64,000 nucleotides of DNA from Cyanobacteria bacterium auto_48_18 (lineage in GTDB: Bacteria; Cyanobacteriota; Vampirovibrionia; Obscuribacterales; Obscuribacteraceae). Of this stretch, positions 22,116 through 49,719 are shown piece after piece; within the stretch, counting starts at the first letter, position 1, and each line of letters starts with the position of its first letter. The stretch covers positions 96,001 through 160,000 of the forward strand of contig JAVHQC010000011.1 in the NCBI GenBank assembly GCA_036170915.1, given 5' to 3'. A program made the translations under genes and the position numbers. Under the pieces are notes generated by a model. The model worked only from the letters and a program-made list of their open reading frames with translations, was not told where the DNA came from and did no database searches.

Positions 22116-22979
22116 TCAAATTTTGCCGGCTCTGCCGACTAGATTGGTGGCTTTAATTCGCTCGCATATTGCTGCAAAATCGTCAGTTGGCCCTGGCCAG
22201 CGTAGTTCGTCGATAGAATCGAACACAGGTACATCAAGTCTCAATGTAGCCAATTGACGAAAGAGCAAGGCATCATCCCATTGGTCAAAAAGGGTCTTAG
22301 ACAATTTTGCCGCGCCTCTTAGAGACGATGGCCATTTAGTTAGCTCATGGGGAATGTCTTCAAAATGTGGAAACTTTGAAAGCACAGCAGCCGCCCCTTT
22401 GGCACCCCAACCAGGCAAGCCGGGATAACCGTCTGCGGTATCACCCACTAGAGCCAAATAGTCAGGAATTGATTGAGGTGCCACACCAAATTTTTCGATC
22501 ACGCCGGCTTCGTCGCGAATAGTGTCACGTCGCCTGTCCATTTGCACCACGCGGGTGCCCACCACTGACTGACTGAGGTCTTTGTCTGGCGTACAAATTA
22601 TCACTCTATCAACGCTTTTGTTCGCTGCAGCTTTTGCAGCAGCTGCCGCCAGGGCATCGTCAGCTTCAAATTCCACCATGGGCCAGACTAGAACTCCAAG
22701 ACCAGTGAGCGCATCTTCTAAAATTGGAAACTGCGACATCAACTCTGGTGGTACACCAGCACTGGTTTTGTATCCGGCATAGAGGTCGTTGCGAAAAGAC
22801 TCAACTACATGATCAGTAGCAACGCCAATGTGAGTGACGCCTTTTTCGAGCATCGGCAAAAGCGAATTAAGTACTCCGCGCACGGCGCCAATTTCTTCAC
22901 CGGCAGAATTGCTGGCTTCAGGCACGGCAAAATAATGACGGAAAAGTTCGTAAGTGCCGTCAATTAAATAGACTTCCAA
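22116..22979 (-). CDS. Stand-alone 5'-3' exonuclease / flap endonuclease
   Basis: LIDG, FRNDLYAGYK, EADD, DKDL, H3TH LVGDTADGYPGLPGWGAK. Confidence 0.9.
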   Translation of the reverse strand: MEVYLIDGTYELFRHYFAVPEASNSAGEEIGAVRGVLNSLLPMLEKGVTHIGVATDHVVESFRNDLYAGYKTSAGVPPELMSQFPILEDALTGLGVLVWPMVEFEADDALAAAAAKAAANKSVDRVIICTPDKDLSQSVVGTRVVQMDRRRDTIRDEAGVIEKFGVAPQSIPDYLALVGDTADGYPGLPGWGAKGAAAVLSKFPHFEDIPHELTKWPSSLRGAAKLSKTLFDQWDDALLFRQLATLRLDVPVFDSIDELRWPGPTDDFAAICERIKATNLVGRAGKI

Positions 22980-23072
22980 AGTAAATCTCTCAGCGCGGCA
23001 GATCAGAATAGTAAAGTTCAGAATAGTTGTGGCAATAATGGCTGAATCAGTTAGCTAAGCTTAATTAAGCTC

Positions 23073-23528
23073 TTAACGACGCCAGAGCTGCCACCAGTGG
23101 CGTTTTTTCGACTTTTCCGCAGCTGCTTCCATAGTAGATTCGTCTGTTAATTCAACAGGCACGTTAGAAAGTTGCTGAAAATTGACCACAGTGTCGGCCC
23201 GCCTCGAGCTGACATTGTCGGCAGTTATTTCAAGATGATAGCGACCAGGCATGAGCTGAAACCGCGGAGTATGAAATGTAGTCTCATGCCCTTTCACATC
23301 GAAAGCTTTGACCGTCAAGTTGTGAAATGGTTTGTCGGTGGCGATATTGACGTCGCCTACATAATAAGTGCCTGCTGCCCAAACCACACCACTACCGAGC
23401 AAACCGAGCACTGGTATAGAAGTTGCCATCAGCGCCAATGTGTCTTTGGCAGTGGCAATTTTGTTGGCCCTGCTTGGCGTAACTACAGCAGGGGACAGCG
23501 TCTCTGTGGATTGTTTAACAGCGTTCAT
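23073..23528 (-). CDS. Membrane-anchored hypothetical protein
   Basis: One TM, a beta-rich domain and a C-terminal KKRHWWQLWRR tail; GGAG RBS before ATG 23528. Confidence 0.7.
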   Translation of the reverse strand: MNAVKQSTETLSPAVVTPSRANKIATAKDTLALMATSIPVLGLLGSGVVWAAGTYYVGDVNIATDKPFHNLTVKAFDVKGHETTFHTPRFQLMPGRYHLEITADNVSSRRADTVVNFQQLSNVPVELTDESTMEAAAEKSKKRHWWQLWRR

Positions 23529-23695
23529 TTTCCACTCCAAAGTGGACTAGGATGTAAGTAGTTTACTGCTGGCTGGTCGGCTCAGCCTTAGATAAGACTT
23601 ATTCAGCCGTAACACTTATCTAAAAGTTACTAGTTTGCTATCTTTGGTTGAGCGTTTGCAGTGACACCGTGCGTAATACCATAGCTATTTTTGCA

Positions 23696-24379
23696 TTAGT
23701 GATACTGTTGAATTTGTGATGTGAAACCTTCGAGGCTTGATGAAGGACCCCCGTTGTATAGTACGTTGCCTGAGCCGTCTAAGAAAACCACTCTCGGAAT
23801 ACCGGTAACCGAATACTTTGCTGACAGTTCACCATTAGAACTGTTGTCTACATCTACTTTCTCAAAAGATACATCGGAAAATTTAGACTTGGTTGCGTCA
23901 AACACGGGCGCAAATTTTCTACATGGTGCTCACCGCTCCGCCCAGAATTCAATCACTTTCTTCACTTTGCCCATAGCAAGTTTCTGACCACCACCCGACG
24001 CTGCTGGCGCAACTGCCGCTTGCGAGCTACTGCTTGAAGATGAGTTACCTCCTGAACCGGTCAAGCGCGCTGATGAAAGTTGAGCTAAGCCGGTGGCGGC
24101 TTTAGCAGACAGATTGGCATCTCTGCTGTCTACGACCCATTTGTATTCTAGTTTTGCCTGGTCTATGCGACCAAGGGCCTGTTGGCAGAGCGCGACATAA
24201 TAGTGCACCAGAGCATTATTGGGATAACTGACCTTGAAAGCTTGAAACTCACTCAAAGCGAGGGCATATTTGCCGTTGGCATAGTCAGCCATAGCCTGCT
24301 GGAACGACGGCGCTGCCTGCACTACCGAACTTATTGAGATTGTGCAAGCTAATAGCAAACCTACTGGTAAAAATCGCAT
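23696..24379 (-). CDS. Secreted TPR + thioredoxin-fold protein with in-frame UGA (candidate UxxC selenoprotein)
   Basis: ORFs 23930-24397 and 23696-23905 share one frame. Reading through TGA 23932-23930 gives KVIEFWAER-U-APCRKFAPVFD..FEKVDVD..YSVTGIPRVVFLD, a complete thioredoxin domain. Confidence 0.75.
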
Positions 24380-24504
24380 AAAACCTCCGACATCCACAAT
24401 CGCTAGTTTCTTATACCCTCATAGCAGCCTCAGTCGATGCACTGTCTACCTGGTGTGATAGTCTTTTGCACATTAACACTCCGTTGGCTTTACAGGGATT
24501 ATTG

Positions 24505-26574
24505 ATGAAAAGAGCTGCTGCCTTCATTCTCTCACTTGTGTCTTGCGCCAATGTTAGCGCTGTTTCTGCTCTGACTGCAAAGGCGGCCAGCACAGCAAGC
24601 GAGAAAGAGCCAATTATCCCCCGATTTTCAGCCGCATACATGGACAAATCGGTTAAACCTGCTGACGATTTTTATCTTTTTGCCAACGGCAATTGGGTCA
24701 AAAATAACCCGGTACCGGCTGATAAAGCCCGCTGGGGTAGCTTTAGCGAACTGGCTGAACGCAATAACTATTTGATTCACGGCCTGCTTGAGAGTGCCAG
24801 TGCCGATGTTGCCAAAAACCAACCCGGAACCCCTCGAAGACAGGTAGGTGACTTTTTTAAAGCCGGTATGAACACTGCTGTATTGGAAAAACGCCGTTTC
24901 GCACCAATTCAAAAAGATCTTGATCGTATTGCTGCTCTCACATCTTACGACCAGATGTTTCGGTTGCTGGCAGATTTTCACAAAGAAGGCGGCGGCGGTG
25001 TTTTCTATAGCACCGTAGATCCTGACGCCAAAGATAGCGGTATTTACGCCTTTCAATTAATGCAAGGTGGGCTCAGCTTGCCTGATCGTGATTATTATTT
25101 GCAAGACAGTTTTTCAGTTCAGCGCAAAGCTTATATCGAGCATCTAAAAAAAATGTTTGAGTTGGCCGGTGACAGTTCAGAGCAAGCGGCAAAGAATGCT
25201 GACACCGTCTTCAATCTAGAGAAGGAACTGGCCCAAGCCAGTCGCTCAAGAGTCGATTTGCGTGACCCAATTAAAAATTACAACAAAGTCAAAACCGCAG
25301 AACTAATCGAAGTCAATTCAGTTCTTCCCTGGCAAGTTTACCTCGACGAGCGTGGTCTCAAAGATATTCCGTATGCGGTGGTGGGCCAACCTGACTTTTT
25401 TGCTGCTCTTGATAAAACGCTTAAGTCTCATCCATTAGATCAATGGAAGACATATTTGCGCTGGCATTTATTGCATGAGGCGGCACCATATTTACATGAT
25501 GCAGTAGAAACTGAGAACTTTAATTTCTTTGGCAAAACCCTAAGTGGCCAGGAAGTGCAAGAACCGCGCTGGAAGCGTGTTGCCAAAGTCATCGATCGTT
25601 CAGTTGGCGAGGCCTTAGGCCAGCTTTATGTAGAAAAATATTTCACTGCTGCTGCCCGCAAAACCATGGCCGAATTGGTCACTAACTTGCGCGAAGTATT
25701 TACCGACCATTTGCAAAAGCTAGATTGGATGAGCGATGTTACGCGCAAAAAAGCCATGGCCAAATTTGAAAAATTTGTGCAGAAAATTGGTCACCCTGAT
25801 AAGTTTCGCGACTACTCCAAAATCACCATTGAAGCTGACGACTATCTGGGAAATGCCCAGAGAGCAGATGCTTTTGAGGTAGCCAGGCAAGTTGCTCGCA
25901 TTGGCAAACCGGTAGACAAAAGCGAATGGGGTATGACTCCACCCACGGTGAATGCATATTTCAATCCGACCATGAATGAAATTGTATTTCCAGCCGGCAT
26001 TTTGCAGCCGCCATTTTTCGATGTTGATATGGATGATGCCGTAAATTATGGTGGCATTGGTGCCGTCATTGGTCATGAAATTACGCATGGTTATGATGAT
26101 GAGGGCAGGCATTATGATGCTGACGGTAATTTGAATGAGTGGTGGACTGAAGCCGATACGAAAGAATTTGATAGCCGTGCTCAGAAAGTTGTAGACGAAT
26201 ACAACTCATTTGAAGCCTTGCCTGGTTTGCATGTGAATGGCAAGCTGACTTTAGGCGAAAATATCGCCGACCTGGGTGGTGTCAGTATTGGCTACGACGC
26301 TCTGCAAAGAGCAATGAAGAAAGACCCGTCTAAACGCAAGAATATTGATGGCTTTACGCCTGAGCAGCGTTTCTTTCTTTCTTTTGCACAACTCTGGCGC
26401 ATGAATATTCGCGAAGCTGAGCAGCGTCGCTTAATCACTGTAGATCCTCACTCACCAGGCAAATTCCGCTCGGTGGGGCCGCTCATGAACTTCCAAGAAT
26501 TTTATGACGCTTTTGATATTAAGTCGGGTGCCAAAATGTGGCGTGAACCTGAGAAGCGCGCCAAAATCTGGTAG
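24505..26574 (+). CDS. M13 family metallopeptidase (neprilysin/PepO-like)
   Basis: VNAYF, HEITH, GENIAD, DPHSP; signal peptide from ATG 24505. Confidence 0.95.
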   Translation: MKRAAAFILSLVSCANVSAVSALTAKAASTASEKEPIIPRFSAAYMDKSVKPADDFYLFANGNWVKNNPVPADKARWGSFSELAERNNYLIHGLLESASADVAKNQPGTPRRQVGDFFKAGMNTAVLEKRRFAPIQKDLDRIAALTSYDQMFRLLADFHKEGGGGVFYSTVDPDAKDSGIYAFQLMQGGLSLPDRDYYLQDSFSVQRKAYIEHLKKMFELAGDSSEQAAKNADTVFNLEKELAQASRSRVDLRDPIKNYNKVKTAELIEVNSVLPWQVYLDERGLKDIPYAVVGQPDFFAALDKTLKSHPLDQWKTYLRWHLLHEAAPYLHDAVETENFNFFGKTLSGQEVQEPRWKRVAKVIDRSVGEALGQLYVEKYFTAAARKTMAELVTNLREVFTDHLQKLDWMSDVTRKKAMAKFEKFVQKIGHPDKFRDYSKITIEADDYLGNAQRADAFEVARQVARIGKPVDKSEWGMTPPTVNAYFNPTMNEIVFPAGILQPPFFDVDMDDAVNYGGIGAVIGHEITHGYDDEGRHYDADGNLNEWWTEADTKEFDSRAQKVVDEYNSFEALPGLHVNGKLTLGENIADLGGVSIGYDALQRAMKKDPSKRKNIDGFTPEQRFFLSFAQLWRMNIREAEQRRLITVDPHSPGKFRSVGPLMNFQEFYDAFDIKSGAKMWREPEKRAKIW

Positions 26575-49401: not shown

Positions 49402-49719
49402 CTAGTTCTTGATCAGATCGAGCAATGCCTGCTTAGATACGCTGCCAATTAAACGTTCTTTTTCTTTGCCATTTTCAAACAAAATAATGGTGGGAATTGA
49501 CTGAATTTTGTAGGTTTTTGAAAGCGTAGGATTTTGATCTACATCAACTTTAAAAACAGCTACATCTGGGTGATCTTCAGCGAATGCCTCAATTACTGGC
49601 GCCATTTGATTGCATGGGCCGCACCATGGTGCCCAGAAGTCTACTACCGCTAATTTAGACAATTCGAGCACATCTTGTTTGAATGTTTCTTCTGATTGAT
49701 CTTTTACGAGCTTTAACAT
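49402..49719 (-). CDS. trxA: Thioredoxin
   Basis: VVDFWAPWCGPC, IQSIPT. Confidence 0.95.
   Translation of the reverse strand: MLKLVKDQSEETFKQDVLELSKLAVVDFWAPWCGPCNQMAPVIEAFAEDHPDVAVFKVDVDQNPTLSKTYKIQSIPTIILFENGKEKERLIGSVSKQALLDLIKN

Follow-up and report, generated by a model that had tools for sequence, protein, structure and literature searches.

The window, which is the whole stretch of 64,000 nucleotides analyzed here, carries on its minus strand two open reading frames separated by a single TGA codon. The locus raises the question of whether this TGA ends a damaged or short gene, or whether it is translated, and if so, as which amino acid. An earlier note on the sequence had proposed that the two frames are one and that the TGA encodes selenocysteine (Sec) in an exported TPR-thioredoxin protein.

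One reading frame with an internal TGA

The two frames proved to be one. The frame at 23696-24379 translates into 149 amino acids, then TGA, then 77 amino acids, then TAA, and its single TGA falls at the position of the first CxxC cysteine. The features of the locus are as follows.

23696..24379, minus strand: TPR-thioredoxin gene of 227 amino acids with one in-frame TGA, likely Sec150 (translation)
24384..24388, minus strand: GGAGG ribosome-binding site, 4 nt ahead of the ATG at 24379 (sequence)
24314..24379, minus strand: predicted signal peptide, residues 1-22 (judged by eye; pLDDT below 50 for residues 1-21)
24065..24304, minus strand: TPR-like helical domain, residues 26-105, five helices (AlphaFold2)
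23984..24064, minus strand: flexible linker rich in Ser, Gly and Ala, residues 106-132 (pLDDT below 50; alignment variable there)
23699..23968, minus strand: thioredoxin domain with a U-A-P-C motif, residues 138-227 (PF00085)
23930..23932, minus strand: TGA at the nucleophilic position, codon 150, likely selenocysteine codon (57 TGA among 98 copies)
23921..23923, minus strand: resolving Cys153 (invariant among the copies profiled: 56 of 56 with TGA and 38 of 38 with Cys at the catalytic column)
23893..23913, minus strand: SECIS-type hairpin within the coding sequence, UUGCG/CGCAA stem (alignment and covariation)
23803-23795, minus strand: cis-Pro loop GIP, within the thioredoxin domain
23698-23696, minus strand: true stop codon TAA (sequence)

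The N terminus has a basic start, a hydrophobic stretch and the sequence VQA-AP, and conservation among homologues starts at about the AP. Judged by eye from this N-terminal sequence, the product is predicted to be exported. In the TPR region, the Pfam models TPR_6 and TPR_16 and the model TIGR02795 gave weak matches, all under cut-off. The read-through protein matched PF00085 over residues 138-210 with 54.2 bits (cut-off, 23.5). The TGA in EFWAER-UGA-APC aligned with the first Cys of DFWAPWCGPC in the trxA gene at 49402-49719 and also with the first CxxC Cys of a Cys paralogue on contig C22. As the earlier note had read it, the downstream thioredoxin half is intact, with the GIP loop present and its Pro195 invariant in 12 of 12 aligned proteins. 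An AlphaFold2 model built on a 12-sequence alignment found thioredoxins as its best Foldseek matches in the PDB; its pTM of 0.48 gave the relative arrangement of the domains no firm solution. It is very likely that the product is a Sec protein composed of a signal peptide, TPR helices, a linker and a UxxC thioredoxin domain.

The probable source run is represented by a Logan contig, which is a re-assembly, likely of the same sample, and not raw reads; over 23000-25000 it showed 0 differences from the window at a depth of 12.8. Around the gene, no promoter or terminator signals above chance were found.

In the databases, the product of the window's gene is deposited as a protein of 149 amino acids (P0173). 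The expectation that annotation pipelines would miss the read-through was borne out, as 31 of the 172 retrieved proteins end one residue before the UGA site. The named short entries are called TPR or hypothetical proteins, with one predicted protease, while "thioredoxin" and "disulfide isomerase" are the names given to full-length Cys forms.

Conservation of the UGA and of a downstream hairpin

Homologous copies were taken from searches of 61 and 104 genomes. The 98 copies comprise every locus with an alignment over codon 150 and represent the best-scoring matches plus some paralogues rather than the full membership of the family. Their catalytic column is TGA in 57, Cys in 38, Ser in 2 and a misaligned Ala in 1, so that the alternation of TGA and Cys at one column, which the earlier note had suggested looking for, was indeed found. 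The TGA copies come from 52 genomes of 16 genera and extend down to about 32% protein identity. Downstream of the TGA, 73-78 codons are open in 56 of the 57 copies, and the remaining copy ends at a contig end. Compared with its closest relative, the downstream half of the window's gene has a dN of 0.106 and a dS of 0.537 (dN/dS of about 0.2).

The residue before the UGA is Trp in 51 TGA copies, Gly in 3, Thr in 2 and Arg in 1, the last being the window's own copy. The earlier reservation that the preceding codon is CGG rather than TGG thus stands insofar as Arg is unusual, but Gly or Thr also precedes the UGA in five other copies.

A family profile matched 26 of 30 other genomes of the bacterial family and 0 of 120 genomes from other families of the class. 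Database proteins with 37-90% identity are assigned to Candidatus Obscuribacter, Obscuribacterales, Melainabacteria and uncultured cyanobacteria. The bacterial family is therefore likely Obscuribacteraceae (Vampirovibrionia), and the TPR-thioredoxin was found in this family only.

A quick IQ-TREE tree of 96 of the 98 copies, unrooted and with weak deep branches, placed two copies of separate interest. One (L120; G098:C153:9847-10461) has Cys at the catalytic column together with a complete SECIS, the sequence of which is the same as in a TGA copy; it is the sister of a TGA copy (SH-aLRT, 99) in a genome with selA and selD, and is likely a recent Sec-to-Cys replacement. The other (L096; G033:C42:40702-41295) is a divergent TGA copy of 32% identity that keeps a CCCGTG core in the absence of the usual stem; it groups weakly with Cys paralogues and is possibly a separate gain of Sec. 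Two TGA genes lie side by side in five genomes, and in genus g54 the TGA gene adjoins Cys paralogues (tandem-copy loci L122, L129, L132, L133 and L161; L109, L112, L113, L119, L136 and L150).

E. coli fdhF provides the prototype of the bacterial SECIS. According to the available part of PMC13188914, the bacterial consensus has a loop of 3-9 nt, a spacing of 16-37 nt and a stem of 4-16 bp, with G in the first two loop positions and GU at loop positions 2-3. In the window, a 5-bp stem, a mismatch or bulge and a C-G pair close a loop (about 23906-23900) whose positions 2-3 are GU; the UGA is 16 nt from the stem and 23 nt from the loop. The geometry thus lies within the consensus, with a loop of 7 nt, G second, and six conserved pairs; in the register chosen by RNAalifold, which recovered the same outer five pairs, the loop has 8 nt with G third. 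As in that consensus, the hairpin lies inside the reading frame, with loop, GU and spacing in range.

The TGA copies have in common a 21-nt element beginning 16 nt after the UGA. All six core pairs are intact in 56 of the 57 TGA copies versus 2 of the 38 Cys copies, and the CCCGTG core is present in 57 of 57 versus 2 of 38. Codon and Cys153 profiles were taken from 56 TGA and 38 Cys copies, with the G033 copy left out. The element's Pro codon is CCC and its Val codon GTG in 56 of 56 TGA copies each, whereas all four Pro codons occur among the Cys copies; it is only in TGA copies that the synonymous sites do not vary. In 48 of the 49 distinct TGA sequences (the divergent G033 copy was again left out), two stem pairs change on both sides (UA to CG; GC to CG or UA), giving 16 covarying cells. 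Shuffled controls gave 2.3, with 0 of 500 reaching 16, and slid registers gave at most 2. Since the covarying cells are confined to a few clades on the tree, they represent a handful of events rather than 16 independent ones. Across 61 genomes the hairpin motif is confined to these genes (reversed control, 0), and a search of this genome for a second copy of the SECIS sequence found none below 4 mismatches.

The upper stem that the earlier note had drawn is conserved and covarying. The lower UAGA/UCUA stem proposed with it can be drawn in the window's copy, but its columns vary among the 48 sequences and the consensus structure is free of it. The caution that the SECIS is weak holds for the window's copy, although its hairpin matches the family consensus with 0 mismatches. 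Alone, the hairpin has a folding energy of -3.9 kcal/mol (z, -0.5), and -6.2 kcal/mol with the lower stem included, neither of which reaches the published consensus threshold of -7.5 kcal/mol; some selenoprotein genes miss this threshold, according to the same part of PMC13188914. The 60-nt region of the window's copy prefers an alternative fold. In a relative, G replaces the mismatched A, and the hairpin of this variant folds at -10.5 kcal/mol. The element differs from the bacterial consensus in that its primary sequence is near-invariant within one family, forcing F-A-P-V-F-[DGE]-A in the protein, and in that most family copies contain a mismatch or bulge, which is of the A type in 40 of the 48 distinct sequences.

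The selenocysteine machinery and alternative explanations

The machinery for Sec that the earlier note had named as a check was found in this genome, with the exception of selA. The genome encodes a tRNA-Sec(UCA) about 95 nt long that scores 75.8 bits against a cut-off of 47, a SelB with its winged-helix domain (333.6 bits) and a selD beside yedF; neither selA nor SepSecS was found in this 86%-complete assembly. In other genomes selA is common, being present in 13 of 14 of the same genus and 83 of 104 of the family, along with selD in 88 of 104 and tRNA-Sec in 30 of 36. In three genomes of the same genus, selA precedes, by about 1 kb, a gene whose first part is rich in repeats. In the present assembly, contig C27 starts inside the repeat region of that gene, and the genes that flank selA on its other side also have no orthologue in this genome. 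The usual locus of selA would thus lie off the start of contig C27 with its neighbors missing as well, as expected of an assembly gap.

Among the 52 genomes with a TGA copy, 47 have selA, and the other five, this genome included, are 70-93% complete. In eight genomes without selA, only Cys copies were seen; four of these are at least 90% complete (G026, G031, G061 and G066). In 13 genomes with selA, there was no TGA copy among the copies examined.

The genetic code of the organism is standard, since the genome encodes RF2 and uses TGA as an ordinary stop, which ends 616 of 2,318 long frames. A genome-wide analysis of UGA reassignment (codes 4 and 25) was negative. The prfB match (G000:C28:22092-23141) has one internal TGA, which we take to be the usual programmed frameshift. 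One contig of the genome carries two nine-gene tRNA arrays (G000:C33:15652-16458 and 164122-165603).

Taken together, the alternation of TGA and Cys, the genes of the Sec machinery and the conserved, covarying SECIS-type hairpin support the earlier proposal, and we conclude with high confidence that the in-frame UGA encodes Sec and that this is a real, unannotated selenoprotein gene with a full-length product of 227 residues. SelB-GTP carrying Sec-tRNA(UCA) would bind the hairpin loop 23 nt past the UGA, and the complex would insert Sec in competition with RF2, the missing selA presumably sitting in an assembly gap. We infer these recoding steps because the bacterial SelB-SECIS pathway is established.

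Alternative explanations were considered. A dead gene, produced by an inherited nonsense mutation or a sequencing error, would need one base change from TGC or TGT. However, the same TGA is common to 52 genomes of 16 genera with the frame intact downstream and a dedicated hairpin, and the re-assembly of the probable source run agrees with the window. For the family, these observations refute the nonsense mutation that the earlier note had allowed for, and we regard a dead gene as extremely improbable. Just as improbable is a changed code or a suppressor tRNA through which the UGA would specify Trp, Gly or Cys. Three database proteins (P0013, P0178 and P0182) have Trp at the site, but they also carry Trp where their relatives end, which points to gene calling under code 4 on short contigs. 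The frequent use of TGA as a stop and the presence of RF2 argue against an altered code, as do the finding that the sole UCA tRNA found is the long-arm tRNA-Sec and the finding that the homologous residue is Cys; the recoding other than Sec that the earlier note had mentioned is thus not supported.

A family of selenoproteins in which the window's own copy is decaying, in a strain that may have lost selA, would account for the Arg seen in 1 of 57 copies, the failure to find selA and the weak hairpin. Yet the hairpin of this copy is at 0 mismatches from the consensus, the downstream dN/dS is about 0.2, and tRNA-Sec, selB and selD are intact. In addition, selA's neighbors are missing along with it, and five other TGA copies also have a residue other than Trp (Gly or Thr) at -1, so that decay seems unlikely. 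Somewhat less unlikely, but still improbable, is that the gene makes two products by design, a 149-residue exported TPR-only protein and a Sec enzyme formed mainly when selenium is available. The UGA comes directly after a complete TPR domain and linker, most hairpins are weak, RF2 is present, and TPR proteins of about this size are also encoded elsewhere in the genome. On the other hand, the short form would end in one orphan beta-strand, and the Cys homologues are single full-length products, which argues for the fusion as the functional unit. A two-product gene could coexist with Sec insertion at this UGA, which we retain as the best explanation.

Possible function and relation to known selenoproteins

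The product likely works as a periplasmic thiol-disulfide oxidoreductase. The signal peptide would direct it to the periplasm, where the TPR domain may bind client envelope proteins. Sec150 would attack a client disulfide or an oxidized Cys, Cys153 would resolve the mixed bond, and the full-length DsbD of the genome would re-reduce the enzyme. We consider export, client binding, Sec150/Cys153 exchange and re-reduction by DsbD, taken jointly, to be somewhat favored. DsbD of this genome has 655 amino acids and three Cys pairs (G000:C20:79746-81713; L179:2747-4714), and its gene is convergent with a peroxiredoxin gene on C20. DsbD is encoded close to a Cys paralogue in G003 but is absent from the G006 region among the genes listed there.

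No conserved operon naming a substrate was found, the neighbors being conserved only within genera, and the role is thus one that we infer. In the window's own genus, the neighbors kept are an M13 peptidase and a Ser/Thr kinase. The genes beside the locus encode a divergent M13 metallopeptidase (24466-26574, plus strand; kept in the genus), a 155-residue protein with no Pfam match (23073-23540, minus strand) and a stand-alone 5'-3' exonuclease (22116-22979, minus strand).

DsbC, DsbG and CcmG/TlpA are periplasmic reductases or isomerases fed by DsbD, and CnoX/YbbN is a cytoplasmic Trx-TPR chaperedoxin with the Trx domain first. By analogy, the protein described here likewise would combine a thioredoxin domain with a helical or dimerization domain that binds clients. 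In contrast to CnoX, the TPR domain leads here, preceded by a predicted signal peptide; the comparison concerns only the way in which these proteins may work. The canonical TrxA is a single cytoplasmic domain with WCGPC, whereas here the domain is fused, has R-U-A-P-C and follows a predicted signal peptide; the score against the TrxA equivalog TIGR01068 was 54.4 (cut-off, 96.8).

Table 1 of PMC13188914 has Sec-thioredoxin (Trx, PF00085, UxxC) among the experimentally verified selenoproteins. The protein here shares with it the thioredoxin fold, Sec as the first residue of UxxC and the existence of Cys homologues elsewhere, but in it a predicted signal peptide, TPR helices and a linker precede the fused domain. 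The protein likewise resembles predicted Trx-fold selenoproteins, which have a UxxC-type or related motif and some of which are fusions: TlpA/redoxin-type proteins, a thiol:disulfide interchange protein (PF13098), DsbG-like (NF041057), Trx7/PDZ (NF041199), SaoT (NF040730) and TsoB (NF045694). None of the NCBIfam selenoprotein models matched over cut-off, the single match being TsoB (31.9 versus 805 bits). The TPR fusion is absent from the table of 119 families in the available text of PMC13188914, in which "TPR" and "tetratricopeptide" have 0 occurrences; that text also describes Sec-to-Cys changes as rare. Remnant SECIS-like structures in some Cys homologues are described in the available part of PMC1794560.

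In the available parts of PMC5029168, PMC13578239, PMC6349859 and PMC12013277, we found nothing on a TPR-thioredoxin selenoprotein family. BSepDB (PMC13326102), as far as its entries are available, has at least 18 from Vampirovibrionia, none of those listed being named Obscuribacter or Melainabacteria; it could hold TPR-thioredoxin genes under "thioredoxin". In literature mostly outside the subscription journals, we found no description of selenoproteins in Melainabacteria, Vampirovibrionia, Obscuribacter or non-photosynthetic cyanobacteria in general, nor of any among tetratricopeptide proteins.

A scan of the genome for CxxU/UxxC motifs found two convincing genes among the best 70 of 280 candidates, and it may have missed other selenoproteins. 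The second gene (G000:C22:456615-457238, minus strand; L095:2113-2739) encodes a TlpA/redoxin-type protein of 208 amino acids with a lipoprotein-like signal and W-U-G-P-C. Its position is TGA in all matches (8 of 101 family genomes), and it has a different hairpin with a GGUC loop, common to the seven copies compared. The TPR-thioredoxin gene itself escaped an ab initio scan that sought TGA read-through from hexamers, and in a crude scan of this genome for genes ending in Gly-UGA-X-stop, none was convincing as an exported TPR gene. A peroxiredoxin TGA in G030 was rejected as a selenoprotein candidate, the TGA being upstream of the conserved part. For molybdopterin oxidoreductase, there was no match in this genome (G000) or G037, and none of the 5 matches in G003, G030 and G036 had an internal stop. 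Of 89 SelD matches in the family, a few of which begin past the site, 88 are free of internal stops; G098 has a second selD copy with a TGA. In this lineage SelD is an enzyme with Cys, and a formate dehydrogenase with Sec was not observed.

In the wider phylum, selA is present in 19 of 401 genomes, across five other families outside the class, and the one genome tested from each of these families lacks photosystem reaction-centre genes. In family f6, 175 genomes yielded no selA; the members listed have small genomes of about 2 Mb.

What is new here is the architecture and the lineage; the recoding mechanism itself is already known, which limits the surprise. The finding adds a selenoprotein architecture absent from the available part of the 2026 inventory of 119 prokaryotic families (PMC13188914). 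It also places a Sec architecture in a phylum that earlier surveys list as having none: the available passages of PMC1794560 and PMC9312934 report Sec as not detected in Cyanobacteria, and those passages do not mention the non-photosynthetic classes. Dozens of entries named "TPR protein" or "hypothetical" would be cut-off halves, a systematic annotation error that is put right here. For tests of what SelB recognizes, the family provides a natural set of SECIS elements that shows covariation and has Cys copies as matched controls. We tentatively suggest, at somewhat less than even confidence, that non-photosynthetic Cyanobacteriota maintain a complete Sec system whose clients are exported envelope proteins, and not formate dehydrogenase or SelD, the TPR-thioredoxin being a main one among them. 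If so, Sec would be an old trait in the phylum, lost in oxygenic phototrophs and in lineages with small genomes, and Sec would have reverted to Cys repeatedly within the family, in one case with the SECIS still in place.
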